From IMG/VR virus record IMGVR_UViG_3300009169_000024, positions 1-62,874 of that record: a DNA stretch of 62,874 bases. One strand, 5' to 3'. This document shows positions 1 to 61,109 of this stretch, piece by piece; the first letter of the stretch is position 1, and each line of letters opens with the position of its first letter. The position numbers and the translations under genes are program-made. Under the pieces are notes generated by a model. That model did no database searches and was not told the origin of the DNA. It saw nothing but the letters and a program-made list of their open reading frames with translations. Origin of the DNA: a virus (Duplodnaviria; Caudoviricetes).

Positions 1-136
1 GGGTTGAACGGCTCCCGAATTCGCCGGACCCTTCCCTCGTCTCTCATCCTGCACCTCCTCGACGAAGTCTCGGAGGTGCAGGTGAGAGACGGGGTGGCCA
101 GCCCCACTGCACCTCCCGGCCATAGACCGCGCACGG

Positions 137-382
137 TCAGCCTGTGGCTGACTCACGCGCCGTCTCCTGCTCGAACACCACCGACTGCCACTCGACCAGC
201 CGATCCTCGACCTCCGCGCCATCCGGCTCTGCCGGATTCACGGGCGGGTCGGGAGCGACCAACGCCACGGCATCGTCGATGAATCGCCGCCAGTCCATCG
301 GCTCCCCGCGCCGCTCTGCCGCACGCCGAGCCGCATCCATGAGCGCAAGCCTCAATTCCGCCAAACCGACCACGTTCGCCAT
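137..382 (-). CDS. hypothetical protein (81 aa)
   Basis: ORF with strong RBS (AGGAGGTG) upstream of ATG. Confidence 0.7.
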   Translation of the reverse strand: MANVVGLAELRLALMDAARRAAERRGEPMDWRRFIDDAVALVAPDPPVNPAEPDGAEVEDRLVEWQSVVFEQETARESATG

Positions 383-392
383 GCTGCACCTC

Positions 393-443
393 CTGCCCCT
401 ATTCCGTAGGGGACACTACGTGTCACCCTACGGATAGGGGCAG
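393..443. repeat. long imperfect inverted repeat abutting the RBS of 137..382
   Basis: ctgcccctat-t-ccgtagggacac-like left arm, tac loop, gtgtc-a-ccctacgg-ataggggcag right arm; about 23 bp with two bulges. Confidence 0.8.
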
Positions 444-648
444 AAGTGCCAAAACGACATGCCAACCGCGCGCAGATCCGCACGGGGTTGGAGAGGTGTT
501 ACCTTCTCGTAACGTGTCGTTACCAAATCGTAACGTGACGTGTTGCAGAGCAACACGTTCGCGTGCCATGGGTGGGGAGTCGCACGCGAGGCGGAGCCTT
601 GACGCACTCCGGCCTGCCCACACATGCGCGTAGCCGCCGAAGGCGGCA

Positions 649-676
649 GGTTGACATAATAGACCTTCTCGGACAC
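649..676 (-). other. dif-like XerC/XerD recombination site
   Basis: Minus strand GTGTCCGAGAA-GGTCTA-TTATGTCAACC has the 11-6-11 layout; the right arm resembles the XerD arm of E. coli dif (TTATGTTAAAT). Confidence 0.75.
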
Positions 677-684
677 TGGCCCCG

Positions 685-709
685 TAAGTCCTTACGTAGT
701 AAGGACTTA
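685..709. repeat. perfect 11-bp inverted repeat next to the dif-like site
   Basis: TAAGTCCTTAC-GTA-GTAAGGACTTA. Confidence 0.85.
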
Positions 710-933
710 GAATCGGGCTGGACAGCGGCAAGGGCCATGCGAGCCGCCCAGCGGGCCTCCAGGGGCGGGGCGGCGGGCAGGCGCAAGCACGTACGGGGGG
801 AGGCGCTTCCGCGACCCTCCCGCCCTCGCCTCTTCTATCGTGGTGCAGTTTCCTGGCGAAACGAATTCTGGGGTGAGGAGCCTTTGCACCTGGGGCTAGT
901 CGGCTATGTCGGCATGCCGACGTTGGTGGGGGC

Positions 934-962
934 TTGACAGCTAGAGATAGAGGGTCTAGGAT
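934..962 (+). promoter_or_regulatory. sigma70-type promoter
   Basis: TTGACA-17 bp-TAGGAT, followed by RBS AGGAGGT and ATG at 983. Confidence 0.75.
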
Positions 963-982
963 GAGACAGGAGGTAGATTCCA

Positions 983-1324
983 ATGGACAGATCAAAGCTA
1001 AGGATGGAGCATGAAATGGGTTACCACGTCCGTGGGGCAGATCATCCTCGGGCCAAACTGACGAAGGAGGATGTTGTTGACATCATCAACTGCCACTGCC
1101 AGGGCTACTCAACCGCGTCGGTTGCAAGAGCCTTGGGCATTTCCGCCACCCAGGTTCGCTCCATTCTGATTGGCGAATCATGGGGATGGTTCACTGGGAT
1201 TCGAGTTGACAGGCCAGTTCTCCAGCACCCCGAGAATGCACGGGAGCTGTTCTATGGTCCACACGCTCCGCTTGCCGCCTATAAGAATCGGGGAGCGGCG
1301 GAAGCTGGCGGTCCCAATGACTGA
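983..1324 (+). CDS. HTH DNA-binding protein resembling the C-terminal domain of HNH homing endonucleases
   Basis: RGADHPRAKLTKEDV motif followed by HTH-like STASVARALGISATQVRSILIGESW; strong RBS. Confidence 0.65.
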   Translation: MDRSKLRMEHEMGYHVRGADHPRAKLTKEDVVDIINCHCQGYSTASVARALGISATQVRSILIGESWGWFTGIRVDRPVLQHPENARELFYGPHAPLAAYKNRGAAEAGGPND

Positions 1325-1337
1325 GCGCTGGGCTCCG

Positions 1338-1366
1338 TTGACAGCCGCTGTAACCTGTAGTAACCT
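1338..1366 (+). promoter_or_regulatory. sigma70-type promoter of the replication operon, overlapped by GTAAC repeats
   Basis: TTGACA-17 bp-TAACCT; GTAAC/GTTAC at 1350, 1360, 1374, 1384, 1405. Confidence 0.6.
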
Positions 1367-1400
1367 CTCGTGGGTTACAGGTAGTTACTGGAGGTAAACC

Positions 1401-2267
1401 GTGGGTTACGCGAAGTTATGGCGTCGGCTGTTGACCTCTTCGATCAACGACTGCGAGGTGGAGACTCGGTGGTTCTGGATCTGTCTTCTGGCGGCGATGG
1501 ATGCACACGGGGTGGTGAACGGGACTCCGGCTGCGTTGGCGAGGGCGGCAAATCTTCCGTTGGAGTCAGTGGAGAAGGCGTTGGAGGAGTTTCAGGCACC
1601 GGACCTCAATTCGCACAGTCAGGAGTTTGAGGGGAGGCGGTTGCAGCGGCTTGAGGGGAACGACTGGCTGATTCTGAACGCGGAGAAGTATCGGAGGATG
1701 CAGAGTGAGGAGGAGGCAAGGGAGAAGACGAGGGAGAAGGTGGCTCGGTGGAGGCAGAAGCAGAGGGAGTTAGGTGTAACCGACTGTAACCAAGATGTAA
1801 CTCCAGGTAACGAAAGTAACCACAAGAGAGAAGTAAGAAGTGAGAAGGGAGAAGTGGATACATCTTCGTCGTCGGAATCCGACGACCTGGGTGTGGACAG
1901 GCCGGATACTGTTCCACTTCGGGACATTAAGATGGTGGTTGAGGCTTACCACGCGGCGATTGCCGGAACGAGGCTGCCGCAGGTGAAGGCGCTTTCTGAT
2001 AGTCGGAAGCGCGTGATTGCTGCGCGGATTCGCGAGCATGGGCTCAAGGATGTCATCAAGGCGATGTCGTGGATTCAGCGTTCGGCATTTCTGCGTGGGG
2101 AGACGGGCAGGGACGGCTGGCCGGGGGCGACGATTGACTGGATCATGGGGCCACGGAACTTCATCAAGGTGATTGAGGGGAACTACGCGGACAAGAAGGG
2201 CGCTGATCCGCTGGCTTCTTTCAACGAGACGTTCGACAGGTTGGCTGGAGGGCAAGATGGCAGCTGA
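1401..2267 (+). CDS. phage replication initiator (replisome organiser)
   Basis: Directly upstream of DnaB; REKVARWR linker; C-terminal IDWIMGPRNFIKVIEGNY motif typical of phage initiators; internal iterons. Confidence 0.8.
   Translation: MGYAKLWRRLLTSSINDCEVETRWFWICLLAAMDAHGVVNGTPAALARAANLPLESVEKALEEFQAPDLNSHSQEFEGRRLQRLEGNDWLILNAEKYRRMQSEEEAREKTREKVARWRQKQRELGVTDCNQDVTPGNESNHKREVRSEKGEVDTSSSSESDDLGVDRPDTVPLRDIKMVVEAYHAAIAGTRLPQVKALSDSRKRVIAARIREHGLKDVIKAMSWIQRSAFLRGETGRDGWPGATIDWIMGPRNFIKVIEGNYADKKGADPLASFNETFDRLAGGQDGS
1776..1855. repeat. putative replication origin (iterons inside the initiator gene)
   Basis: GTAAC at 1776, 1786, 1797, 1807, 1816 (about one helical turn apart), followed by a purine tract. 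Confidence 0.65.
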
Positions 2268-3588
2268 GTGGGAGGATCACGACCTGGAGATGGAGAAGGC
2301 GGTGCTGGGGGCGGCGTTGCGGGACAAGGTGGCGCTCCTGGAGGCGGTTGACCTCCTGAAGCCCACGGACTTCTACGTCGAGGCGCACCGGACGATCTTC
2401 GAGTACATGGAGTGGTTCGTGGAGGAGGGCAGGCCGGTTGACACTCTCCTGCTCGGCAGGGCCATGAGGGAAGCTGGGGAGCTTGCTGGTGGGATCACGG
2501 CTCTTCTGAGTGAGGCTGAGGAGGCGGTGCCGGATGTCGCGAACGTCCGCTACTACGCGGAGAAGGTGCGCGACCTGGCGATTCGCCGGGGGCTGGCGCT
2601 GCTGGTCCGTGATGCCGACCCTCGCCACTCCTCCGCCAGCACCGACGACCTGATCGACGGGCTCTCGTCTGGGCTGGTCGAACTCTCGGGGGCCAGGGCG
2701 TCCGACATGGTGCGGATTGGGGAAGTGGCGAGCGGGGTTGTTTCCGACGCGATTGCCGTTGCGGCTGGCGAGGCGAAGAGCGTTGTGGTCAGGACCGGGA
2801 TCGAGGCGCTCGACAACCTGGTGTTCATGCGCCACGGGCAGCTCATCGTCCTGGCCGGTGCCACCTCCAGCGGGAAGTCGTCGCTGGCCCTGCAGATTGC
2901 CGACAACGTGGCGAGGGCTGGCGGGACCGTCGTCTACTTCTCCCCGGAGATGAGCCGTGAGGAGCTGGCGACGCGGGAGCTGTCCGAGCGCACCGGCTTC
3001 TACATGACGGCAATCGAGCGCGGCACCACCCTCGACAGCTCCGCTCAGGACAGGCTGAGCTGGGCCAGCCGTGACCTCGCCGGGCTCCCCCTGTGGGTGG
3101 ATGACTCGCCCGGCCTCACGCCCATGGAGATCAGGGCGAGGTCGAGACTGGTCCAGCTGCGGCATGGGCTAGACCTCGTGGTCGTGGACTACCTGCAGAT
3201 CGTCAAACCGACAACCAGGAACCGCAGCCGCGAGCAGGAGGTCGCAGAAATCTCCCGCGACCTCAAGCTCACAGCCCGTTACCTGAGAGTCCCCATGCTC
3301 GTCTGCGCCCAGCTGTCCCGCAAGCACGTCGATGAGCACCGCGAGCCCCACCTCCAAGACCTCAGAGAGAGCGGGGCCATCGAAAACGACGCCGACACCG
3401 TGCTCATGCTCTACCGGCCTGACCGAGAGAGCCCGCGAACCCTGATCTATGACCGGAAACAGCGCCAAGGCCCGCTCGGAACCCTCACCGCCATGTTCGA
3501 CCCCGTCAGAATGCGCTTCAACAACACCACGAGAGGAGAAGGCGGCAACGAGGGCGCTCGCCAACCGAGCAATCGCCGCCAAACCTAG
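2257..3588 (+). CDS. dnaB: replicative DNA helicase, DnaB family
   Basis: N-terminal EKAVLGA..DFY..AHRTIF; Walker A GATSSGKS; FSPEMS; VVDYLQ; AQLSR; DLRESGAIENDAD; KQRQGP; ATG at 2257 with GGAGG RBS. Confidence 0.95.
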   Translation: MAAEWEDHDLEMEKAVLGAALRDKVALLEAVDLLKPTDFYVEAHRTIFEYMEWFVEEGRPVDTLLLGRAMREAGELAGGITALLSEAEEAVPDVANVRYYAEKVRDLAIRRGLALLVRDADPRHSSASTDDLIDGLSSGLVELSGARASDMVRIGEVASGVVSDAIAVAAGEAKSVVVRTGIEALDNLVFMRHGQLIVLAGATSSGKSSLALQIADNVARAGGTVVYFSPEMSREELATRELSERTGFYMTAIERGTTLDSSAQDRLSWASRDLAGLPLWVDDSPGLTPMEIRARSRLVQLRHGLDLVVVDYLQIVKPTTRNRSREQEVAEISRDLKLTARYLRVPMLVCAQLSRKHVDEHREPHLQDLRESGAIENDADTVLMLYRPDRESPRTLIYDRKQRQGPLGTLTAMFDPVRMRFNNTTRGEGGNEGARQPSNRRQT

Positions 3589-3755
3589 CCTTTCCCCACG
3601 TCCTCGCCCTTTGGTGGCGGCTTGGGAGGGCTGGTTTTCGTCTGTGGGTGCTGCGATCTAAGGAATTCACGCTCTGCGTTGAGCTTTTCCAGCGACTGCT
3701 TGATTCTCTGGCCTGAGAGGCGTCTTTTCTTTCGCAACTCGGACCCCCCTTTCCC

Positions 3756-6268: not shown

Positions 6269-6623
6269 CCTTCTCCTCCAGCAACGGGTGGGGGATGATG
6301 CAGAATGTTCCGTAGGCGGTCTTGATCTCTTGCATTCCCATCGCCTTGAGCGTCCGCTCGTGTTCCTCCGGCGTCATCCCCACGACCGTTTCCGCGATCC
6401 GCTTGAGCATCGCTTCCCACTCCCAGTCCTCGGAGGCTGGGATCAGGCCGTCGTCGATGATCCGCTGGATGCAGTTGCAGATGTCCCGCCTTCCGTTCTC
6501 GGTTTCGTCCTCCCATGAGACTTGGATCTCGGAGCCGTAGAAGCCCCACTCCCGGTTGATCTCCTGGATGTGCTTGTGCCAGGCACGGGCGATCTTCTCG
6601 ACGTACTGCTCGGTGTCACTCAT
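6261..6623 (-). CDS. hypothetical protein
   Basis: Starts within the junction repeat (GGTGAGGTGAAGCC-ATG). Confidence 0.7.
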   Translation of the reverse strand: MSDTEQYVEKIARAWHKHIQEINREWGFYGSEIQVSWEDETENGRRDICNCIQRIIDDGLIPASEDWEWEAMLKRIAETVVGMTPEEHERTLKAMGMQEIKTAYGTFCIIPHPLLEEKDE

Positions 6624-6847
6624 GGCTTCACCTCACCATCCAGGGCGCGGAGGGCATCGCTCATTGCGTTGAGGCAGTCAGCGTCAGTTGGGTGTTCTCC
6701 GGGGAGCGGGTTGCCAAGTCCACGGATGTCCCATCTCTTTGCAACCTCCCGCGCCGCGTCCACCACCGCTTGTAGGCGCTTGTTCTCGGCCTCCTGCTTG
6801 TAGATTGTGCCGATCAGGTCACGCAGCTTGTCCACCGGATCACTCAT
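6620..6847 (-). CDS. array protein ending RALDGEVKP
   Basis: RLQAVVDAARE...LRALDGEVKP. Confidence 0.75.
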   Translation of the reverse strand: MSDPVDKLRDLIGTIYKQEAENKRLQAVVDAAREVAKRWDIRGLGNPLPGEHPTDADCLNAMSDALRALDGEVKP

Positions 6848-7155
6848 GGCTTCACCTCACCGTCCAGGGCGCGGAGGATCTCTCGCGCCGTCTCGACGGC
6901 TTCATGCCGCCGGTGAGAGATGATCTCCCAGCACCTCTCCCGCGCCGCGTCCACCACCGCTTGCGCCGCCTTCCACTTCTCCTCATACATCTGAGCGAAG
7001 GTTACAAGCCCCGCCCTGGCGCTGTTGGCCTTGTCCAGCTCCGCTTGCAGGCGCTCGATCTCGTCAGCCGCCCATATCATGTCCTGTTGCACCAGTACGC
7101 CGACCACATTTCTGGAGCATCGACGGAGCCGGTCAAGTCGGTTCTGGTCACTCAT
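6844..7155 (-). CDS. array protein ending RALDGEVKP
   Basis: EIERLQA...QAVVDAARE...LRALDGEVKP. Confidence 0.75.
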   Translation of the reverse strand: MSDQNRLDRLRRCSRNVVGVLVQQDMIWAADEIERLQAELDKANSARAGLVTFAQMYEEKWKAAQAVVDAARERCWEIISHRRHEAVETAREILRALDGEVKP

Positions 7156-7352
7156 GGCTTCACCTCACCCGCTCGGTTCGGACGACTCCAAACTCCTTGC
7201 CCGTAGCAGAACTCATTGAACTGGTCGAGCCGGATCGCTCCGCATGCCTCACAACGCCATACGCGCACGGTGTCACTCTCGACAACAGATGGCTTCCGGC
7301 GAAGCCACAGTCCCTCGACAACCACAATCCTGCGCTTGTGGTTGCAACTCAT
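7152..7352 (-). CDS. array protein with unrelated body (CxH/CxxC), ending GEVKP
   Basis: Shares only the junction repeat. Confidence 0.7.
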   Translation of the reverse strand: MSCNHKRRIVVVEGLWLRRKPSVVESDTVRVWRCEACGAIRLDQFNEFCYGQGVWSRPNRAGEVKP

Positions 7353-7594
7353 GGCTTCACCTCACCGTCCAGGGCACGAAGGATGTCATCTGCTGTATCC
7401 CTCACCTCTTCCATAATCCTCTGGGCGTTGATGACCTCAAGACACGCCTCCCGCGCCGCGTCCAGCACCGCTTGCAGGCGCTCGATCTCGGATTGTGCGT
7501 GCTCACGAGCGTCCCGGTGTCCATCAAAGTACCCAACGCTATATCGGTCATTGTCGCCAGCGTCGTCCAATAGCCGTTTCACGATTTCACTCAT
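7349..7594 (-). CDS. array protein ending RALDGEVKP
   Basis: EIERLQAVLDAARE...LRALDGEVKP. Confidence 0.75.
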   Translation of the reverse strand: MSEIVKRLLDDAGDNDRYSVGYFDGHRDAREHAQSEIERLQAVLDAAREACLEVINAQRIMEEVRDTADDILRALDGEVKP

Positions 7595-7899
7595 GGCTTC
7601 ACCTCACCGTCCAGCCGTCCCCTTCCGTTGCAACGCTGGCACTGGCGCTCCCCGGACTCATCCAGCCCGCTTCCGTCGCATAGCGGGCATGGCTTCACCT
7701 CACCGTCTAGGGCGCGGATGGCGATGCACAGATCGCAGGTGCAGTCGTCCCCGGCGCACATATAGGGTCGCGCCGCGTCCACTACCGCTTGTAGGCGCTC
7801 CCACTCCTCCCACGGCACGATGGCGAACGGCCCGCCGCTGTCGTAGAGCAGCACCTCCTCGTCGTGGCCGGTCAGGTAGGCGCGTCGAACGTCACTCAT
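7591..7899 (-). CDS. array protein extended by a DnaJ-type zinc-finger unit
   Basis: ATG at 7899; ERLQAVVDAAR...RALDGEVKP-CPLCDGSG..CQRCNGRG-RLDGEVKP. Confidence 0.7.
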   Translation of the reverse strand: MSDVRRAYLTGHDEEVLLYDSGGPFAIVPWEEWERLQAVVDAARPYMCAGDDCTCDLCIAIRALDGEVKPCPLCDGSGLDESGERQCQRCNGRGRLDGEVKP

Positions 7900-27180: not shown

Positions 27181-30100
27181 GTGGCGGCACCGTCCTACAT
27201 TGGCAACGGCGGCATCGCCGCATCCGATAACTCGGCAACTGTAGCTGTCCCTTACCCGTCGCTTCAAGCCAATGACATCCTGATCCTCCAACTGCTGTCC
27301 GCTGGCAGCGGCAGTGACACGCACCAGACTCCTTCCGGATTTACTGAGATCCTCGCCCAAACAAATCAAAGCACGAACATGGACGTGTCGTTCTGGTGGA
27401 AGCGTGCGGTTGGCACAGAATCCGGCAACCTGACCTGCACCCGTAGCCTGTCCAATGACGCTTTCTTCGGCATCATGTCGTGCTGGCGCGGGGCGGTCAC
27501 GAGCGGAACACCGTTCAACGCTGCCGCCTCAATCGTGACCGGTCGCAGTGCCTCCGCGTCGTCGTCCGCGATCACGCCAAGCTACGACTACTCCCGCATC
27601 ATCTGCCTCCTAAGCGTTGAGGACAACCTCGGGAACGGCACGTTTGCCGGCGGCAACTACGCTGAGAACTTCGACCTCTCTACCAGTACTGGCGACGATG
27701 CCGAGTTTAGCGCGTGCTCGTTCGCCCAAACGACCGCTGCTGAAGAAGCGGCCAGGACCTCGACAATTGGCGGCACAGACTCATGGGCCACCTGCACGCT
27801 GGCGCTGTGGAGTGGAACTGGCACAACGCAATCTCTCGCTGGGTCCATAGGAGCAACCGCTTCCGTCACTGGGGATCTCAAGGTCAAGCGCAAGCTCGCC
27901 GGAACAATCGGGGGAACTTCCGCGCTCAGTGGCAACCTCAAAGGCTACTGGCCACGGCTCGGGGACTGGCGTTGGTATGCAGACTCGACCTCCCCCGACA
28001 CGCCGCTCGCCGACGAGAACGCCCTCTACACGACGACCTCTCTTTCTACAATCCTTCGCCTTCGGACGGAGATCGTCATCGAGGGCGGGAAGGGGACATC
28101 CACCCCTGGGACCATCATCATTGAGTATTCCACCAATCTAACCAATTGGTATGAACTCGGATCAACTGCCCATTGGGACTGGGCTGATGGAGCAAATGAC
28201 GATCAAGAGAAAATGGATGGCTATCTCGTAGCCGACAGCGGCAGTAGGTTCGGCTATTTTCACGAGAGCAAGGTTGAGTACACCGACTACCCGAGCGATG
28301 GGGCTGTCACCGAAGAAGACTTTGCTATCGCCCCGACCTCAAACGTCACCACCAACACGACCTACTACTTCCGCATCACCGGCTACTTTGGGGCAACCCC
28401 GGTTCCCAAGGCGACCTACGGGGCCGGGACGTACCCGCAGGCGAAGGTAACTCTGGGGACGACCTACAGCCTGGCTGGGAGCATTGCGGCAAAGGCTGCG
28501 GTAGCTGGGGATCTCTTTGCTGACCACGTTGAGTTTGCCGTCGATCTGACATCTCCTGGATCTACGTTCTCCATCAGTCTCGGCGTAGCAACGTGGAGTC
28601 TCGCCGGGAGCATCGCAGCTCAGGCGGCCCTCTCTGGGGACGTGAAGGTAACGAGGAAACTCGCGGGTTCCATCGCCGCGCAGTCCACCCTCTCGGCTGA
28701 CGCATGGATTCTGCCGCCGCTCCCGTCTGGAATGGTGGCTTGGTTTGATGCGAGTAACTCTGCCAACACGGTAGATGGATCATCCGTGGCATCGTGGCCC
28801 GACCGCTCGGGTAGTGGGAACAATGCGACACAAGCCACTGAATCGAAGCAGCCAACTTTCAGGACTGGCGTCGTCAACGGCAGGCCAGTTATTCGCTTTG
28901 ATGGTGGCGACAGGCTTCAGACCGCCGCTTTTAGTTCCGCGCTTGCCCAGCCAAATACGGTTTTCTTCGTCGCCATGGATACTGGCGAGCAAATTTCTGA
29001 GTACATCACCGACGGGCTGACCACTGATGCCCGTCACGCAATCCTTCTCGGCGGCACGGGAACTAGGACCATATACGCCTACGCTGGGTCATTGCCATCG
29101 CCCGGCGAATGGGGATCTATCGCGTCGTTTCATATTCTCTCCGTGGTATTTGCCACAACGTCATCCGACATTAGACGCGATGGAAATTACATAGCAGAGG
29201 CTCAGTCAGTCGGGACAAATGCCCTCGACGGTTTGACGGTCGGCGCTAGGTTCAGTGATGAGGAGTGGTTCAGCGGAGACATTGCCGAGATCATAGTGTT
29301 CGACAGCGAGTTGTCGCTCGCCAACATCATGGTGGTCGAGGAGTACCTCTCGTCCAAGTACGGGATAGGACTCACCCACGAAATGGCCGGGGCAGTCGCC
29401 GCCCAGTCCGCCCTTGCTGGCGACCTCACCGTCATCGAAGGTAGCACGACCTGGGATCTCGCTGGGAGTGTTGCGGCACAGGTGGCGCTCGCTGGCAACG
29501 CAAAGGTAACGAGGAAACTCGCAGGTAGCATCGCCGCAGCGTCAACCGTTACCGGCAATCTGGAACTCACTGAGGCTCTCTGGAGTCTGCAGGGCGCAGC
29601 CGCTGCTCAGTCCACGGTCAGTGGGGATGCCAAGGTCACGAGGAAACTCGCGGGGGCAATCGCTGCCCAGTCTGCTCTCTCCGGCAACCTCCAGAAGACT
29701 GAAGCGCTCTGGAGTCTAGCCGGTGCGATAGCTGCTCAGTCAGCCCTGGCTGGCAACCTGGAGGTACAGCACAAGACCTGGGATCTCGCTGGCGCAATTG
29801 CCGCCGCATCTGCGCTGACTGGCGATCTCGTCAGCACCGAACCCTGGCAGAACATCGTCCTCTATACACCAGGGTCCGCCTTCAACATTCTTCTCAGCGA
29901 AGGGGCGTTCACCCTTTCCGGTCACATCTCAGCGACCAGCGCACTCGTCGGGGATCTCGAAGTTGAGCACACGCCCATCACCTTCGACCTGGCTGGCACC
30001 ATAGGGGCACAGTCTGCAGTCGCCGGGAATCTACGAATCCCGATGACGTACTACGTCGCGATGGGAGGGACCGCCGCCAATAAGGAGGCAGCAACTGGGC

Positions 30101-33100
30101 CAGAGACTGATCTCTCAAAGTGCATGTCGAACTACTACAACAACGACACGGCGGCCTACGATCCTGGCGATACCGTGTTCGTCACCGGATACGGAGGGAC
30201 CATCGACTACCTCTCCTTCAGGGGAGGGTCATCAAGCGGTCGCGTCAACTACGTCGGGAGTACGAACTATCCAGCCATTGTAGACGGCGCACGAGTCACA
30301 ACCGGTTGGACAAACTACTCAGGGAACATCTGGCAAAAGACCGGGATCACTTGGCATCCTCAGCAGCTATGGATAAATGGGACCTATGGCGACCGGAAGA
30401 CCAGCATCGGGAATTGCGTAAACGAGTTCGATTGGTTCTACGACGAAGCTGCCGATACGATCTACCTCTATGCGGCGAGCGATCCAGACACGCTCTACAC
30501 CAACCCCGGCGTTGAAGTGCCGGAACAGTACGCACCGGCTGGTCCCGGAAGTTACGTCAACGTTGACAACATCACTATTAGGCGCGGCTGTCAGAATGGT
30601 TGCTTCGGATGGAATGTTTCGCACGTCAAATTCACAAACTGCACGTTTGAGTGGTCCTGGTGGAACGGTCTTGGCATACAAGGAGATGCCAGCACCATCA
30701 CTTACGACATCGTCGTTGAGGACTGCGTCGCTCGCTTCAACGGTAACCAGGGGTTATCGTTCCCGTCAATTCAGAAGCAGGTTGGGATCGTCATCCGACG
30801 CTGCAAGGCATATCAGAACGGGACTTTCCAGTTTGCAGATCCACGCTGGGGCGACGACATGCTCTACAGCGGTGGGATCAAGATTTGGAACTATGCCGAG
30901 GACTGCATCATTGAGGATTGCGAGGTCTACAGCAACGGTCCTTCCACGCTCGGGTCGAATTCTCTCTGGTTCGGACAGGGCATCTGGTTAGATGGGGCAA
31001 TCTCGTCCGCAGGCCACGAGAACATCGTGCGTCACAACAGGGTCTATGACAACCACGGGGTCGCGCTGTACTGCGAGCTGACGACCTACTCAATCTGGCA
31101 CAACAACGTCTGCTACGACAACGCCAAGGAGCCGGACACCGGCAACTGGTGCAATGCCTCCATCCGGTGCGATGCCAGAGAGAGCATGCAGTCGAGCCAC
31201 AACAAGTTCTACAACAACACCCTCGTCGGCGGGCAGCACGGCATCGCGACGATGGTGACAGACACGACCGGCGAGGTGAGCTACAACGAATTCAAGAACA
31301 ACATTATCATCGGGACAAACAGCGCAAAGATCAAGGCGACCAACGGTGGCGACAACATCACCTACGGCCACGACAATGTCTACAGCCACAACTGCCTCGG
31401 AGCAGAGGCCACCGGGTTCGTCATCTGGACGACGGCCAAAGACACCTACGACGCCTGGGAGACGGCCTACGGCGGTACAACCAACAGCATCGAAGCTGAC
31501 CCGGTCTTCGAGGATGACGCGAATGACAAATACTGGCTCGCCCCATCCTCCCCCTGCAAGAACGCCGGTCTTGATCTTGGTGACGCCTTTGAGGATGGTC
31601 TCCACTACCCGTCCACCTGGCCCGATGGGGTTGTCACACTAGACCAGGATAGTTACGGCTCCGCCTGGGAGGTCGGAGCATACGTCTACGTTGGGCAGCT
31701 AGCTGGAGCCATCGCCGCTCAATCCGCCCTGACGGGCAACCTGGAGATCAGCGAAGACCTCGTCCTCCAGGGTCAGATCGCTGCGCAGTCGAGCTTGACT
31801 GGTGCCATCAAGCTCACTCAGAAGCTCGCTGGCACCATCGCGGCGCAGAGCAGCCTGGTAGGTGAGGCGAAGATTACGCGGCAACTGGCGGGTTCAGTTG
31901 CGGCGCAATCGTCGCTGACCGGCACGCTCAAGCTGCAGCAGAAACTGGCCGGTGCGGTTGCTGCGCAGTCGGCTCTGGCGGGCGACCTCGGCATCACGGA
32001 AGGAGTCTGGAATCTTGCCGGGACGGTCTCTTCCCTCTCCTCACTCAGTGGCGCACTGAAGCTCCAGCAGCGACTACAAGGGGCCGTCTCGGCATTCTCT
32101 TCCCTCGTCGGCAATCTCCAGGTTCAGCACGCCACATGGGATCTGAATGGTGAAATCTACGCCAGGACGGCTGGGATCGAGGGCGATCTCCGAGTCATCC
32201 GCAAGCTGGTTGGCGCAGAAATCTTCGAGAAGTTCGACGCGATAGCGACTCTCCAGATCGTCCATGCCGTCTGGAATCTTCAGGGGTTGATCTTTGAAGA
32301 TGTGGTGCTGGTAAAGGGCGGCCTGCTTGTCAAGCGGAAGCTGACTGGTGCCATCGCCGCTCAGAGTGCGCTGACCGGCAACCTCCAGTCCACAGAGGCA
32401 GCCTGGAGCCTGGCCGGGTCCGTCGCTGCGCAGGTCACGCTTACCGGCAACCTGGTCAACCTGAGCGACATCCCGAAGCTCCTCCACCCGCACAATAGCT
32501 GGATCAACGTCTACAGCGAGCCGGTCACGCTGACCGAGATCCCTGTCCTGGTCGTCTCGAACGGGCTCCACTACCACTACGCGAGCAGCGTCTACGTCCA
32601 CCAGCAGCTGGTCGTCAGCGATGCTAGTCACTCGCATACGATCCAGAATGTCACGTTTGCCCTCGCTGAAGACGCGCTCGCCATCCTGAGTTCTGCTCAC
32701 GCTCTCACCAGCGAGGAGGTTGACCTCCTCAACTCGCTGCTGATCGCGAACGCCCGCCACTACCACTCGGTGATGAACGTCAACATCCCCTATGGCCCGA
32801 CAGCCAAGGAGGGGATGGGGCTCGTGGATGCTCTCTTCGCGCTCAACGCGACGATGAAGCTCCCGCCGTATCCGATGCACCAGAACGAGCTGCTCAAGTT
32901 CTGCCAGCAGCTCTACTGGCAGCTGCAGACCAACTACATCCCGCAGACCGACCGCATCGAGAACATGACGATGGTCGGCCTTGATGAGCAGCGCCCTGAC
33001 CCGGTTGGCCTCCGGCAGATGTTCTTCGCCACCGACACTGCTACGCTCTACATCGACGTGAAGACAAGCGAAGACAAGGCAGAGTGGTTCTCCATCGCGG

Positions 33101-33501
33101 CAGGGGCAGGGACGAACGAGATCCACGAGGAGACGCTAAGCCAAAATGGTGTAGCTAAATCTCTGTTCTGGTTCCAGGGCATAGGGCGATCTCACGGCTG
33201 CATTCTGAATTACTGGGCTCAAGTGCTGAGCACCGACAATTACGAGGTTGGGGAAACCGGGGCTGTCGCGTTCACGGTTGACTATACCAACAACCTAATC
33301 AGCGTCAGCAAGCTAGGGAGTCCAGCCGTTGTCGCGGCTGGGGGTCTGTCAGCGAGCTTCGTATTTGGTGCTTTTGAATCTGGGTACGGTCATGTGGTGA
33401 CGGTGACACCAACCCTGAGTGGCGGGACATTCGACCATGGGACGATTCACTACTCGCCGTGGTTTGGCAACCTGAGCGAAGTACAGTACGAGGGGTATTG
33501 A
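27181..33501 (+). CDS. large modular tail fibre/adhesin (2106 aa)
   Basis: About 26 LAGxIAAQSxLxGxL repeats; LamG-like domain (AWFDAS..WPDRSGSGNNATQ..GDIAEIIVF); parallel beta-helix (IEDCEVYSN, NNTLVG, SSPCKNAG, WEVGAY); His repeats near the C-terminus. Confidence 0.85.
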   Translation: MAAPSYIGNGGIAASDNSATVAVPYPSLQANDILILQLLSAGSGSDTHQTPSGFTEILAQTNQSTNMDVSFWWKRAVGTESGNLTCTRSLSNDAFFGIMSCWRGAVTSGTPFNAAASIVTGRSASASSSAITPSYDYSRIICLLSVEDNLGNGTFAGGNYAENFDLSTSTGDDAEFSACSFAQTTAAEEAARTSTIGGTDSWATCTLALWSGTGTTQSLAGSIGATASVTGDLKVKRKLAGTIGGTSALSGNLKGYWPRLGDWRWYADSTSPDTPLADENALYTTTSLSTILRLRTEIVIEGGKGTSTPGTIIIEYSTNLTNWYELGSTAHWDWADGANDDQEKMDGYLVADSGSRFGYFHESKVEYTDYPSDGAVTEEDFAIAPTSNVTTNTTYYFRITGYFGATPVPKATYGAGTYPQAKVTLGTTYSLAGSIAAKAAVAGDLFADHVEFAVDLTSPGSTFSISLGVATWSLAGSIAAQAALSGDVKVTRKLAGSIAAQSTLSADAWILPPLPSGMVAWFDASNSANTVDGSSVASWPDRSGSGNNATQATESKQPTFRTGVVNGRPVIRFDGGDRLQTAAFSSALAQPNTVFFVAMDTGEQISEYITDGLTTDARHAILLGGTGTRTIYAYAGSLPSPGEWGSIASFHILSVVFATTSSDIRRDGNYIAEAQSVGTNALDGLTVGARFSDEEWFSGDIAEIIVFDSELSLANIMVVEEYLSSKYGIGLTHEMAGAVAAQSALAGDLTVIEGSTTWDLAGSVAAQVALAGNAKVTRKLAGSIAAASTVTGNLELTEALWSLQGAAAAQSTVSGDAKVTRKLAGAIAAQSALSGNLQKTEALWSLAGAIAAQSALAGNLEVQHKTWDLAGAIAAASALTGDLVSTEPWQNIVLYTPGSAFNILLSEGAFTLSGHISATSALVGDLEVEHTPITFDLAGTIGAQSAVAGNLRIPMTYYVAMGGTAANKEAATGPETDLSKCMSNYYNNDTAAYDPGDTVFVTGYGGTIDYLSFRGGSSSGRVNYVGSTNYPAIVDGARVTTGWTNYSGNIWQKTGITWHPQQLWINGTYGDRKTSIGNCVNEFDWFYDEAADTIYLYAASDPDTLYTNPGVEVPEQYAPAGPGSYVNVDNITIRRGCQNGCFGWNVSHVKFTNCTFEWSWWNGLGIQGDASTITYDIVVEDCVARFNGNQGLSFPSIQKQVGIVIRRCKAYQNGTFQFADPRWGDDMLYSGGIKIWNYAEDCIIEDCEVYSNGPSTLGSNSLWFGQGIWLDGAISSAGHENIVRHNRVYDNHGVALYCELTTYSIWHNNVCYDNAKEPDTGNWCNASIRCDARESMQSSHNKFYNNTLVGGQHGIATMVTDTTGEVSYNEFKNNIIIGTNSAKIKATNGGDNITYGHDNVYSHNCLGAEATGFVIWTTAKDTYDAWETAYGGTTNSIEADPVFEDDANDKYWLAPSSPCKNAGLDLGDAFEDGLHYPSTWPDGVVTLDQDSYGSAWEVGAYVYVGQLAGAIAAQSALTGNLEISEDLVLQGQIAAQSSLTGAIKLTQKLAGTIAAQSSLVGEAKITRQLAGSVAAQSSLTGTLKLQQKLAGAVAAQSALAGDLGITEGVWNLAGTVSSLSSLSGALKLQQRLQGAVSAFSSLVGNLQVQHATWDLNGEIYARTAGIEGDLRVIRKLVGAEIFEKFDAIATLQIVHAVWNLQGLIFEDVVLVKGGLLVKRKLTGAIAAQSALTGNLQSTEAAWSLAGSVAAQVTLTGNLVNLSDIPKLLHPHNSWINVYSEPVTLTEIPVLVVSNGLHYHYASSVYVHQQLVVSDASHSHTIQNVTFALAEDALAILSSAHALTSEEVDLLNSLLIANARHYHSVMNVNIPYGPTAKEGMGLVDALFALNATMKLPPYPMHQNELLKFCQQLYWQLQTNYIPQTDRIENMTMVGLDEQRPDPVGLRQMFFATDTATLYIDVKTSEDKAEWFSIAAGAGTNEIHEETLSQNGVAKSLFWFQGIGRSHGCILNYWAQVLSTDNYEVGETGAVAFTVDYTNNLISVSKLGSPAVVAAGGLSASFVFGAFESGYGHVVTVTPTLSGGTFDHGTIHYSPWFGNLSEVQYEGY

Positions 33502-37038: not shown

Positions 37039-38235
37039 ATGGCCGAGGAACAGAAGAAGAAGCGGAGCAGGTTCGGGGAAGAGTTCCACGAGCTGTTTCC
37101 CCAGCTCATTTTGCCAGCAGCCCTCGGCCTGATCTCGTCGTACAACCCGCAGGCCACCGCTGGCGTGCGCACGGGTCTCGCCGCTGCTGACCTGTTCTCT
37201 GATCTGCGGGAGCGGAAGCGGCAGCAAGCCTTGGAAGAGACAGCCTCAGCTGGGATGACGGATTGGATTGAGCGAAGGAGAGAGGCCACTGCCAGGGCTG
37301 AGGACGATCTGCGGACAGCGAAGGGGACGGAAAACCTCGTTGCCACGTTGGAGAACACCGGGAAGTCTAGGCCGGGCGGGGCCACAATTGCAGTTGCCTT
37401 CCCGCCCGGATCGACAGAGCGGGAGCAGGCCGACCAAGTTCCCTACTTCCATGAGGCCGTTCAGCTTCCACAAGCCGGGGGCGCAGCATCGCTGCCTGCG
37501 TTCGCTGGCCTTGAGCCGTTCGGCAACCTGGTGAACGAGCCGATGGGCCAGGAGCTGCTGCCGATTGCCAAGGAGCAGGCGGATGTCAGCGAGATGCAGC
37601 CCAGCTATGACTTCCTCGACATCATGGGGGCGCAGTCCATCCTCAACCCTGCCGCTGCGGCGAGCCAGGCTGGCTGGTGGCAGTACCAGGAACAGGGACA
37701 CATGAACGAGATGGAGCGCATGATCGGGCAGTACCATCTCATGGACCTGAGCGACGCTTCGCGGCACCACCTGAAGACCGCCGAGATCAAGCTGAGAGCT
37801 GGCGAGCGAGTCGCAGCGGAGCGCGAGCTGGCGCTGATCCACCCCCCGAAGCCGGTTGTGTACGGCGGCGGGGCGCTCGTTCCCAAGTCTGTAGAGAAGG
37901 ACTACACGCTGTACCCAACCCCGCCGAGTGCTGGCGGACGCGCCGGGGTGAACGCTTACCTGAGCGAGCCAATGGAGAAGTGGACAGACGCACAACTGGA
38001 CCGCTTCATCATCACCCAGACGAAAGATGCCGCCGCCATCGAAAAGAACATTGGTGATACAAACGAAGAGGTAGTGCAACAGACATGGGCATTGCTCACT
38101 GAAGCGCTGGCTGAGCGCGAGCGGCGTCGCCGGCCAGCCGGTGGTGTTGTGCAGCCGCCGCCTCCTCCTCCTCCTCGCGGCACCACTACGACGCAGCCGC
38201 CGTCGGACATCCCGGCAGAGTTCCTGGGAGGGTGA
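37039..38235 (+). CDS. internal virion protein
   Basis: Position before the giant gene; RBS AGGAG; LILPAALGLIS hydrophobic patch. Confidence 0.65.
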   Translation: MAEEQKKKRSRFGEEFHELFPQLILPAALGLISSYNPQATAGVRTGLAAADLFSDLRERKRQQALEETASAGMTDWIERRREATARAEDDLRTAKGTENLVATLENTGKSRPGGATIAVAFPPGSTEREQADQVPYFHEAVQLPQAGGAASLPAFAGLEPFGNLVNEPMGQELLPIAKEQADVSEMQPSYDFLDIMGAQSILNPAAAASQAGWWQYQEQGHMNEMERMIGQYHLMDLSDASRHHLKTAEIKLRAGERVAAERELALIHPPKPVVYGGGALVPKSVEKDYTLYPTPPSAGGRAGVNAYLSEPMEKWTDAQLDRFIITQTKDAAAIEKNIGDTNEEVVQQTWALLTEALAERERRRRPAGGVVQPPPPPPPRGTTTTQPPSDIPAEFLGG

Positions 38236-41200
38236 CGATGCCAGCCCCGCTTCCTCCGGCCCCCGGCTTCACCGATCCGCAGCAGACTGGCACGACCGAG
38301 GAAGACTGGCTGTACTTCAAATCGCCGGAGTACACGGAGCTGCCGCTGCCGCAGAAGCTCGCGGCGTTCAACAAGGTGGCGAGGCGGAGCAACACCTACG
38401 CCACCATGCCGTGGGGTGACAGGGAGAAGCTGCGCACCAAGGTTCTCGGAGTCAACAACACCTTCGATGTCTTCAAGCACGAGTCCTTCCAAACCCTGGA
38501 GACCGTGGACCAGAACGATCTCTTCAACAGCTACGTCCAGGGGTCTCCGACATGGGAGGGGCTCGACACTGAGAAGAAGCAGAAGGCTCGCGCCAAGTGG
38601 GTGCCTGCCTTCGCCGCTGGTCAGAAGCAGCAGAAGATCCAGGAGACGCTACGGGCTGGCATCGAGCGTCAGAACACGCTCCCTGGCATAGACATCGAGA
38701 TGCCCAAGAGCCTGCAGCCGCAGGTCGAGGCAGAGCCGTCCGCAGAGGAGTTCGAGCGCCGGGTCTACTACGCCTCCATCGGGCGCAGCATCGACGAGGA
38801 GGGGAACCTCAACATCCCGCGCCGTGGGGCGGAGCCGGTCCAAGTTCCAGCCTACGTCTTCGCCATGCCTGGGATGTCGGTAGCTGAGCAGCAGGGGATG
38901 GGCGATGCCGTCGTCCAGCAGCTGAACGACCCGGAGGTGTCCCGCTGGTGGGAGTTCACCAAGCGGCAGCAGAAGGCTCTCGCCTCGAATCCTGAGTTCA
39001 AGCCGGAGGATCTGAGCGCCTTGGAGAGAGCTGGGAAAGGTCTCACTGCCGGGATGGCGCGGATGGCTTCGACGCCCGTGACTGCCTGGTCGATGATGCA
39101 GGCCGCTCACGGCATGCCGAAGGCGGCAGAGGAGACCACAAAGAAGGCCCAGAAGATCAGCGGGGTGATGGCAGAGGGCGGCTATCGTCCGCTCCGAATG
39201 TCCGACTACTCCGGTGGCGATGTCGCAGGCTGGACGACGGCTCTCTTGGAAGGTGTTGCCACCACTCTGCCGACAACCGCCGCTGCGGCTACCGTCGGAG
39301 CCGTGACTGGCGGCATGGGAGCGCCGCCACTTCTTGGCAGCATGGCCGCTGGAGCAGCGCTCGAAATCCCGATGATCTACCAGGATGTGTACGAGGCCAC
39401 CGGCAAACTGGAACCTGGGCTGGCCTTCGGACTCGGAGCGGTTGCCGGAGCGCTTGAAGGCATTGGTGCCGGGGGGATGGCGAAGCGCATGATGGCAGCT
39501 GGCGTCCCGCGCAGCGCCATCAGCAGGGCGCTCGTGAAGATGGCGAGTGGCAAAGAGCTGCTCAAGGACATGGGCCAAGAGTCTCTGACTGAATTCGCGC
39601 AGACATTCCCAGAGGCGCTGGCCATGGCCATCGCAGAAGACCCCACCATGAAGATGGACTTCGAGACTGCCAAGGCGTTTGTGGCGAAGACAGCGCCGGA
39701 GGCAGCCGAGTCCGGGGTCACCGGGTTCTTCACCCCGCTCGCCATCTCCGGCCCGGCGATGATAAGGCAGGACATCCGGGCGCGTCAGCCTCTGCCAATC
39801 GACCAGGCTGAGGTGGACGCTGTTGCCAGGGCCAGCATGAGGCCGACCGGACAGGGCCAGCTCATCATCGACACGGAGGAAGTCGGCGGGGTCCGCGCTC
39901 CCTCGATCCCAGGTGCCGCCCTCGGGCCGGAGGCGATGGAAGCGGGCCGAGCCAGGGCCGCTGCAGAGCAAGGGGCGTACCGCGAGCAGGTCACCGCCGA
40001 GGACGCAGCGCAGGCCCAGGCCGACATCGACGCCTACCGGGAGCGGGCCAGGGCCAGGGGGGCCGAGGAGCCGGAGGTCCAGCTCAACGAGCGGATGAAC
40101 ACGCTCGGGCCGGATGACCAGGCGCAGGTACGGGACCGCACCACCGAGCTGATGGCGCAGATGCGGGCGAGGTTCGTTGAGCAGTTCGGGGAGGAGCGCG
40201 TCACCCCAGCCATCGAGCAGAACATCACCCGTCGAGCCTGGGACCAGGCGCTCACCGAGATGAACGCGCAGCCTGCCCCTCGGCCTGAAGTCGTCGGCCC
40301 GACCGGCGAGTCGCTGACTGCCCCAGAGCCGCTGCCTGCTGGCCCTGTGATCGTGCCTGGCCGGGTGCAGGATGAACGCCTGGCGGAAGAGACAGCGCAG
40401 CGTAGGGCGGCTCAGGTGCGGGGCATGGCGGCGCAGCAGATCGTTGATGACTACCGCGCCCGTGGTGCCTTCCCGCGCATCCCGATGGTGATTGCCGGGG
40501 AGCGCAAGCGCGAGTCGGAGGAGATGGGCAACCAGATCCTCGACAAGCTCAACCGGGACGACACGCTGCAGCTGGGCCTGGCGGACCTGAAGGTGCTCGG
40601 AGACCAGTACGAGGATGCACTCCAGCATTACCTCAACCTGAACGCTCAGCGGCAGGCCAGAGACCGAGAGATAGACGCCCAGATGGATAGACTCATCGAC
40701 CAGATTGACAGGACGGTGATCGGGTCGAAGCGCCAAGTTGCCCTGCAGCAGGAGATTGACAACCTCCACAAATCATATCTTGACGAGACGTTCAATGAGA
40801 CCGAGGAGGAGGCAGACGCCAGGGAGCGGCTGAGCCTGATCGAGGATGCGCATGCGCACATCATGGATCGCCTCACCCCTGACATGACGCCTCACCTTGC
40901 CGACAACCTCAACCGCATCGCGCAGGGATCGCTGCGCTGGGCGTCGAGGGTCTACGAGGCCAACGGCATGACCACGGCTGCGACCGTGGCGGGCCTCATG
41001 GCTGACAGCCCGCAGAACATCCGAGGCATCTCCGAGCAGACGATCAACGAGATCATCGAGGAGGCTCGCGGCATCGCGCAGGAGGGCATCGAGGAAGACC
41101 AGCGGATGGCCAATCCGCGCAAGCTGAAGAACTCCCAGTGGAAGAAGCTCGCAATGGAAGCCACGACTGCGCCCGAGGTTGCGGCGCTGCGGCGGGAGTA

Positions 41201-61032: not shown

Positions 61033-61044
61033 GCTGCGCCTCCT

Positions 61045-61109
61045 TTCCCTTCCCTTATCGCTCTCACAAAGTGTGAGCGATAAGGGAAGGGAAGGCCGTC
61101 GCCTTCCCT
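61045..61109. repeat. 19-bp perfect hairpin with an overlapping alternative 9-bp hairpin
   Basis: ttcccttcccttatcgctc/gagcgataagggaagggaa; agggaaggc/gccttccct. Confidence 0.9.

Follow-up and report, generated by a model that had tools for sequence, protein, structure and literature searches.

Sites of the dif type, on which XerC and XerD, recombinases of the host, act, are described as two 11-bp arms with partial dyad symmetry around a centre of 6–8 bp (PMC5357621). According to PMC9226527, a non-replicating plasmid that carries dif integrates at the chromosomal dif site at high frequency through FtsK and XerCD. In the papers that we found, the exploiters of the Xer system are inoviruses, double-jelly-roll phages, gokushoviruses and islands, and we found no paper on a tailed phage with a dif-mimicking site. 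Here, we analyzed such a site in the IMG/VR virus record IMGVR_UViG_3300009169_000024 (62,874 bp, classed as linear and rated 73% complete), which is referred to as the window in its whole length. The tailed-phage content of this record includes a small terminase, a portal protein, a major head protein and a RecE-like exonuclease.

The 28-mer at positions 649–676 of the window appears to be a close copy of a host-type dif site on a tailed phage, and binding of XerC and XerD to it is predicted. We consider it probable that the 28-mer serves as a true substrate for Xer in one way or another. Among the reactions it could serve, integrase-free lysogeny of the kind known from integrative mobile elements exploiting Xer (IMEX) is the most likely one, a reading that we favour tentatively. 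The proposal of the first-pass annotation, in which host XerCD integrates the phage or resolves its dimers, is supported in part.

The 28-mer and its conservation in a related phage

On the plus strand, positions 649–676 read GGTTGACATAA TAGACC TTCTCGGACAC; on the minus strand, the same positions give GTGTCCGAGAA-GGTCTA-TTATGTCAACC in an 11-6-11 layout. In this orientation, an XerC-type arm (GTGTCCGAGAA, 666–676, minus strand) and an XerD-type arm (TTATGTCAACC, 649–659, minus strand), the latter named by analogy with the written order of the Frankia alni dif site, flank a 6-bp central region of putative strand exchange (GGTCTA, 660–665, minus strand). The two 11-bp arms have partial dyad symmetry, with the inner bases AGAA/TTAT in the window and ATAA/TTAT in a related phage described below. 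An 8-bp spacer (TGGCCCCG, 677–684) separates the XerC-type arm from a perfect palindrome, TAAGTCCTTAC-GTA-GTAAGGACTTA (685–709), whose 11-nt arms are 100% complementary around a 3-nt loop. The first-pass annotation of this DNA had reported an 11-6-11 site within 649–709, the 8-bp gap and the perfect palindrome, all of which are present as described. On the other side of the 28-mer, a G+C-rich hairpin (GCCGCC-GAA-GGCGGC, 633–647) lies one base outside the XerD-type arm; its equivalent in the related phage is GCCCC-TTC-GGGGC, with the pairing kept and the letters changed.

The dif site of F. alni is quoted in Kono et al. 2011 (PMC3025954) as CACGCCGATAATGCACATTATGTCAAGT. The inner 7 + 9 arm bases of this quoted site, CCGATAA and TTATGTCAA, are identical in the related phage and one base off in the window, where the inner seven bases of the XerC-type arm read CCGAGAA. 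Arms with CCGAGAA are also present in single-copy chromosomal sites of two bacterial genomes (G012 and G119) and thus represent a natural variant of the XerC-type arm. The XerD-type arm shares 10 of its 11 bases with the TTATGTCAACT arm of single-copy chromosomal sites (G012, G018, G119 and G423). As the pattern for a chance test, we used the 16 inner arm bases of the F. alni site (CCGATAA-N6-TTATGTCAA). The window contains a single site with up to three mismatches to this core, and this site has one mismatch; shuffled sequences contained a mean of 0.07 such sites, with any at all in 6 of 100 shuffles. By this measure, the likeness of the 28-mer to dif is well beyond chance.

The closest relative of the phage is one 65,098-bp IMG/VR contig, whose DnaB and head proteins are 98% and 93% identical to those of the window; a third contig is identical to this relative in the region of the site. 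Around the site, only 603–894 of the window aligns with the relative (77.8%, including a 41-nt identical run), 492–602 aligns poorly, and 894–2195 has no DNA match in the relative. Within the aligned part, GGCAGGTTGACATAAT is unchanged and the next five bases all differ (AGACC versus GAGGA); TTCTCGGACAC of the window then corresponds to TTATCGGACAC in the relative, followed by the unchanged spacer. Altogether, 21 of the 22 arm bases are kept, with an identical XerD-type arm, and five of the six centre bases are changed, the relative having TCCTCA. Of the bases flanking the centre, the 16 before it and 18 of the 19 after it are identical. Five of the six differences within 644–684 fall in the centre (hypergeometric probability of about 5e-5, by our own post hoc arithmetic). 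With its arms held and its centre free, the 28-mer has the look of a tyrosine-recombinase core site, unlike that of a promoter. The first-pass annotation had named conservation in related phages as a check on its proposal, and this is borne out in the sole close relative.

The first-pass annotation had also stated that no tyrosine or serine recombinase is recognisable in the window. Six-frame searches for these two families only (PF00589 and PF00239, E ≤ 1), in which the controls worked, gave no match in the window and none in the 65,098-bp relative, so that the statement stands for both. In addition, the two records complement each other at their ends. The relative spans the end-to-start junction of the window with 1,431 bp extra, which encodes small proteins without Pfam families, and a contig of metagenome run X1 reaches 1,372 letters past window base 1; the window, in turn, spans the end-to-start junction of the relative with a gap of about 140 bp. 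Because each record bridges the ends of the other, no segment is hidden from both, and together they form a circular map of about 64–65 kb. The completeness estimate of 73% is probably too low.

The exact 28-mer gave no match in viral contigs (own record excluded), and a megablast search with 1–3000 of the window gave none. A metagenome scan with a 20-mer taken from the conserved block beyond the palindrome yielded nine contigs, two of which are real, namely the contig of the relative and one of 1,154 bp with 99% likeness to the window; only 20–22 bases are shared by the remaining seven. Metagenomes that contain the phage come from freshwater sediment, soil and wetland (10 runs in seven studies, with no RNA run listed among them).

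Sites of the same type in bacterial chromosomes and viral contigs

The 22 arm bases, with any centre, were compared with about 185,000 species genomes (one genome for each species). Two exact matches were obtained (L017 and L018), with about 0.1 expected by our own arithmetic; one is in a metagenome-assembled genome (MAG) of the Acidobacteriaceae and one in a MAG of the Acidimicrobiia. Both sites lie among ordinary chromosomal genes, and the loci have no likeness to the phage outside the 28-mer. For a wider scan, we used the core with G or T at the variable base and up to one mismatch, with the reversed pattern as a control. This core matched 51 of 121 Acidimicrobiia genomes (48 once and three twice; reversed control, 1) and 57 of 121 genomes in the class to which the Acidobacteriaceae MAG belongs (reversed control, 10; the count includes one unpublished genome, G500). 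Many of the scanned genomes are incomplete MAGs, so that misses say little. Seven of the Acidobacteria matches are false, being located inside conserved coding sequence.

Examples of true chromosomal sites are AAGGCCGATAA TCCTCG TTATGTCAACT, TCTGCCGAGAA GCCTCG TTATGTCAACT and GCTTCCGATAA GGTATA TTATGTCAACT. The 22 bases of core and centre of the relative, CCGATAATCCTCATTATGTCAA, form the sole such site of two Acidimicrobiales MAGs, and its centre TCCTCA is one base from TCCTCG, the commonest form in Acidimicrobiia. The centre of the window, GGTCTA, equals that of the single dif-like site in one MAG labelled Proteobacteria (L191 in genome G574). Given the thousands of dif sites on record, such agreements between centres are only mild evidence, and the MAGs concerned are sequence matches, not linked to the phage as hosts. 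In one complete genome (G017), GC skew in twenty 20-kb samples changes sign near the site at 2.23 Mb, with figures too noisy to place the terminus. Judged from these comparisons of sequence, the 28-mer is of the chromosomal dif type of Actinomycetota and Acidobacteriota. The resemblance to dif proposed in the first-pass annotation is hence confirmed by single-copy matches in Acidimicrobiia and Acidobacteria, by the F. alni core and by the low control counts. Its further suggestion that the site may help to identify the host holds in part: the site indicates a host group, not one particular host.

Three side observations concern chromosomal sites of this type. In seven Acidobacteria genomes (L034–L040), AACGCCGAGAA-TTTTTA-TTACGTCAAGC within conserved coding sequence mimics dif and is a trap for pattern-based dif prediction in that class. 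A 151-nt soil contig of run X2 contains a 33-nt look-alike of 647–679 with three letters different and unrelated flanks of lower G+C, which may be the dif site of the host or of a neighbour. The Acidimicrobiia MAG G003 has two dif-like sites on two contigs (L018 and L020), each adjoined on its XerC-arm side by a repeat of about 80–220 nt that has at least five copies nearby. An array of small elements that have inserted at dif could explain this, as could the binning of two strains into one MAG.

The chromosomal copies bear on an explanation in which the divergent early region simply has its usual control DNA here (a promoter, an operator or a piece of the origin), with an incidental likeness to dif, which we regard as quite unlikely. 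On the plus strand, GGTTGACATAAT would then supply a −35-like TTGACA, or TGACATAAT an extended −10, and the palindrome would serve as an operator for the neighbouring helix-turn-helix (HTH) protein or as the hairpin at the 5′ end of a non-coding RNA over 667–890. The location of the site in a 600-bp region between divergent genes agrees with such a role, as does the use of TTGACA by nearby phage promoters (at 934 in the window, and in the relative too) and the occurrence of GGTTGACATAAT at up to two mismatches five times, with 1.26 expected. Moreover, the neighbouring HTH genes and the palindrome arms have both diverged between the two phages, and 630–900 folds on both strands with some double changes, a comparison of only two distinct sequences that establishes no structure. 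However, TTGACA is not followed by TAnnnT at a distance of 16–18 bp in either phage, the conservation covers the XerC-type arm, which a promoter leaves unexplained, and chance falls far short of accounting for the match to dif. Bacterial chromosomes have these 22 arm bases too, in one case between two convergent genes, a place that requires no promoter. A promoter and an Xer site could also coexist, as in cer.

A promoter followed by a structured RNA had been the first reading of the site, prompted by the promoter-like look of the conserved GGTTGACATAAT and by promoter-like and iteron-like sequences in the region. A sigma-70 scan of 1–2000 for −35/−10 hexamers 16–18 bp apart, with the extended −10 reading outside its scope, was empty at the site and gave only the promoter-like TTGACA-17-TAGGAT at 934–962, ahead of the HTH gene at 983–1324. 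A search for known RNAs (Rfam 15, E ≤ 1) returned five weak matches in 1–3000, all below the gathering scores and none in 600–900. The promoter reading was dropped because of the empty promoter scan, the lack of an Rfam match and the exact arms in chromosomes.

Among viral sequences, the core followed by C is found in 98 IMG/VR stretches, of which two represent the relative, leaving 96 other viral contigs (L045–L140). The free G/T position is T in 96 of the 98 stretches, and at the last arm base, which the pattern leaves unspecified, 58 stretches have T and 23 have C. Because of this strong bias at both positions, most of the stretches are judged to be real dif-like sites, not chance matches. 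The 96 contigs range from 4 to 109 kb and from 42 to 71% G+C, many are unrelated, and some are complete genomes that have terminal repeats and lack a tyrosine recombinase.

Fifty of the 96 contigs were tested (those of at least 15 kb among the first 80 listed), and a tyrosine recombinase was found in nine. Among the 18 rated at least 90% complete, six have a tyrosine recombinase and 12 do not, several of the 12 having direct terminal repeats. Weak portal likeness to the present phage was seen in only one of the 50. Terminase_6N matched 14 of them (eight over the cut-off) and TerL_ATPase one, which was below it, models that are too insensitive to count tailed phages. Next to six other viral dif-like sites, one of 10 flanking proteins belongs to a PHROG family, the large terminase, on a contig additional to the 14.

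The same core in 96 other viral contigs, many of unrelated lineages, suggests a general benefit that is not bound to one life style. This would suit an explanation in which the site binds host Xer proteins for another end, such as an FtsK stop or the holding of the genome at the septum, or in which it is a passenger from past recombination with a host; we consider it very improbable. FtsK is reported to stop at XerCD-dif (PMC2800217). No role of this kind was found in the literature searched, and no direct evidence for one was obtained here. A mere passenger, moreover, would not keep 21 of 22 arm bases beside DNA that has diverged beyond alignment.

Integration at dif and resolution of circular genomes

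If the phage lysogenises without an integrase, its genome would form a circle after injection. Host XerC and XerD would synapse the phage site with the chromosomal dif site and exchange strands across the 6-bp centre, and in this way the whole phage would enter the chromosome at the replication terminus. The arms would stay constant because the host enzymes have to bind them, and the centre would be free to follow the dif site of the local host population. The observations behind this reading are the identity with chromosomal dif, the arm-versus-centre pattern, the absence of a phage tyrosine or serine recombinase by the searches above, and the circular map. From these we infer the binding of XerC and XerD, the partner site, the direction and control of the reaction, and any role of the palindrome and of the block beyond it.

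Integration is favoured by a site that is a full dif, with a centre equal to real chromosomal centres, and by the gene content of the phage. Alongside an XRE-type HTH gene, the early region has a lambdoid-type replication and recombination module (with an O-like initiator, DnaB and a RecE-like exonuclease), found here without an integrase. This make-up is that of many temperate phages. Among 30 further phage proteins annotated, most of them without a family, no lysogeny or partition function was recognised.

Several results weigh against integration. No integrated relative was found with the portal protein in 401 Acidimicrobiia genomes or with the capsid protein in the five genomes with the closest dif sites, and the replication protein gave only two distant loci in genome contigs. 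The first-pass annotation had pointed to contigs that join host and phage DNA at 660–665 as a means of verifying integration. None was obtained: among the contigs on 1–2400 in four runs from four studies, no contig leaves 660–665 into host DNA, in a search based on contigs, which can miss rare forms, and with no cover of 641–880 in run X8. The two phages are about 90% alike and differ in five of six centre bases, and therefore they cannot both match one host dif site. The XerC-type arm of the window has G where the commonest form has T, and the same core is common to at least two phyla. Furthermore, FtsK-driven recombination should remove an insert that has a full dif site on either side in direct repeat. 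No match to DUF3653 was found (E ≤ 1), and hence no candidate by that family for a TLC-type activator XafT, to which we take DUF3653 to be linked; other IMEX types need no FtsK-independent activator. As far as described in PMC5357621 and PMC9226527, one arm or the centre of known IMEX sites departs from dif.

The DNA next to the XerC-type arm has to be considered in this context. Perfect inverted repeats with arms of at least 11 nt and loops of up to 10 nt occur at four places in the window (five overlapping hits), with a mean of 0.6 in 20 first-order Markov simulations. The palindrome of the relative is TAACTCCTTGT-GTT-ACAAGGAGTTA. Compared with that of the window, three arm positions are changed on both sides (alignment pairs 59–77, 65–71 and 66–70) and none on one side only. 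The loop at 696–698 is GTA in the window and the inverse, TAC, in the 1,154-bp contig (L033) and in contigs of runs X1, X2 and X5 (three studies), a difference that resembles a flip-flop polymorphism as from template switching in a hairpin. Because of the symmetric double changes and the inverted loop, we prefer to read the palindrome as a DNA or RNA hairpin, or as a site that co-evolves with a phage protein, either of which would fit better than a fixed host-factor site. The first-pass annotation had proposed an accessory-factor site; with a fixed host accessory factor, this would be the less favoured interpretation. Phage dif-like sites do not generally come with such a palindrome, as none of 80 other distinct viral dif-like sites has a perfect inverted repeat of at least 9 bp within 70 nt on the XerC-arm side.

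Beyond the palindrome, a G+C-rich non-coding block of 185 bp (710–894) is conserved in alignment with the relative. A coding function of the block was rejected, since frames in 600–960 are broken in the relative by a 1-nt indel and stops. Searches with the block against plasmid and phage collections gave no match.

These features suggest an alternative in which the 28-mer is a real Xer substrate acting as a plasmid multimer-resolution site of the cer/psi type, in a phage that persists or replicates as a circle. Host XerC and XerD would recombine two direct copies on a dimer into monomers, and the palindrome and the 185-bp block would be accessory DNA that makes the reaction FtsK-independent and one-directional. 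We regard this as possible, if somewhat unlikely. Counting spacer and palindrome, about 210 bp of conserved non-coding DNA adjoin the XerC-type arm, with flanks beyond alignment. For comparison, cer is described as a 30-bp core with about 180 bp of accessory DNA encoding the small RNA Rcd (PMC5357621). A centre that has to match only itself can drift, which fits the changes at five of six bases, and the replication module and iteron-like repeats are neighbours of the site. The accessory DNA of cer is presumably on the XerC side as well. The failure to find an integrated form (401 + 5 genomes and the contigs of four runs) also agrees with resolution.

On the other hand, centres that equal chromosomal centres are not needed for resolution, and neither ParB_N nor AAA_31 (ParA-type) genes, the two families searched, were found in the window or in the relative. 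The lack of a plasmid match and of a similar palindrome beside the 80 other viral sites likewise counts against resolution, and a fixed host factor would account less well for the palindrome-preserving double changes than a hairpin, or a phage protein that co-evolves with the site, would. Enterobacteria are the source of the accessory proteins that act at cer and psi, and we know of none for the hosts considered here.

A broader proposal draws on both integration and resolution. Tailed phages of soil and sediment, infecting Acidimicrobiia, Acidobacteria and others, would commonly lack an integrase and carry a dif site with its centre tuned to the host population, by which host XerC and XerD turn them into prophages or keep them as single circles. 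In the present lineage, this site would be combined with a cer-like module on the XerC side, consisting of the hairpin 8 bp from the arm and the 185-bp structured block, possibly transcribed. Such a module would make the reaction FtsK-independent and set its direction. We consider this proposal doubtful as a whole; if true, it would give Xer recombination its first accessory architecture beyond the plasmids of enterobacteria.

Genomic context and comparison with known Xer systems

The site and the palindrome lie within a 600-bp stretch without a credible gene, between divergent genes. To the left, this region is bounded by an 81-aa gene (137–382, minus strand), an open reading frame (ORF) with G+C-rich third codon positions and no Pfam or PHROG family. 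To the right, a 113-aa HTH gene (983–1324, plus strand) is the first gene of the replication operon; its matches to HTH_23 and CENP-B_N are weak and all under the Pfam cut-offs, and the relative has a diverged 89-aa counterpart. It is followed by genes for a replication initiator or helicase loader (O-like and DnaD-like; 1401–2267, plus strand; phrog_10469, 4.7e-31; phrog_345, 1.8e-16) and a DnaB-type replicative helicase (2173–3588, plus strand; PF03796, 1.9e-63; PF00772, 1.5e-21). As a query for relatives, the O-like protein retrieved only distant Firmicute loci. The head (capsid) protein is at most 32.5% identical to that of any isolate phage (98 records), and the nearest isolates are mostly podoviruses.

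Several further observations were made in the early region. Iteron-like GTAAC(C/G) repeats, about 10–21 bp apart, are present at 498–539 and 1344–1420 of the window and at 3680–3730 of the relative (L005). Their positions differ between the two phages, in each case near the O-like initiator gene, and they are candidate origin repeats. Positions 127–376 form a mosaic joint, as contigs of runs X2, X5 and X8 have a different cassette to the left of base 376, with 375 letters in run X2 compared with 248 in the window. Long, near-perfect hairpins are located just upstream of leftward gene starts (29–99, 390–446 and 61036–61102 in the window; 1390–1440 and 3130–3190 in the relative). One of their arms complements the Shine-Dalgarno sequence (CCTCC), and the relative keeps hairpins at equivalent places with different letters. 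They may occlude the ribosome site or stabilise the RNA.

Elsewhere in the window, a series of small leftward genes at 6600–7810 with a common start region (CATGGCTTCACCTCACC, six copies) and repeated internal segments look like a paralogous family. The virion module includes two giant ORFs, one of 2,106 aa (27181–33501), in which a short Leu-Ala-Gly-rich repeat occurs at least 14 times, and one of 2,990 aa (38232–47204).

Whether a phage is called temperate by prophage finders and life-style predictors depends mainly on its integrase. Should tailed phages be able to lysogenise or persist with the help of host XerC and XerD, a class of temperate phages would be scored as lytic, and the chromosome terminus would be an overlooked landing site for large prophages. 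With 96 further contigs, and 12 of 18 near-complete ones without a tyrosine recombinase, the question can be tested widely. The site could serve as a sequence-based pointer to the host group of uncultured phages, and the palindrome and the block are a first candidate for accessory Xer control in Gram-positive-type or acidobacterial hosts.

Compared with chromosomal dif sites such as that of F. alni, the phage site has the same 11-6-11 layout and the same type of inner arm bases. Its outer four XerC-type arm bases (GTGT), however, are common to only the two genomes with exact arms among the roughly 185,000 species genomes. Chromosomal dif is located at the chromosome terminus, whereas the phage site is in an early control region and, unlike chromosomal dif, has a palindrome and a conserved block attached to it.

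The known IMEX, which comprise the Vibrio phages CTX, VGJ and TLC, dif-type double-jelly-roll phages, gokushovirus prophages and the gonococcal island, likewise have no recombinase of their own and one dif-like site. A further likeness is the use of host XerC and XerD, here expected from sequence. An element of this size can be handled, as indicated by the 57-kb gonococcal genetic island (IMEX sources, as far as they cover these elements: PMC5357621, PMC12715192 and PMC7062461). The carrier differs from known IMEX in being a tailed double-stranded DNA phage of about 64 kb from a non-proteobacterial host group. Both arms are canonical here, whereas the XerD arm is degenerate in TLC phage and in the gonococcal island, and VGJ phage has a mismatched centre. 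Also unlike IMEX, no integrated form was seen in the 401 + 5 genomes and four runs, and no DUF3653 gene was found.

With the plasmid sites cer (ColE1) and psi (pSC101), the phage site has no sequence likeness, and it differs from them in its carrier, a virus without ParB_N or AAA_31 genes, and from cer in its centre of 6 bp instead of 8 bp. In its architecture, however, it resembles them. cer and psi likewise combine an Xer core with about 180–210 bp of adjoining conserved non-coding DNA, which in cer holds a promoter and a small RNA according to PMC5357621, and in these plasmid sites, as in the phage, the centre is private to the replicon.

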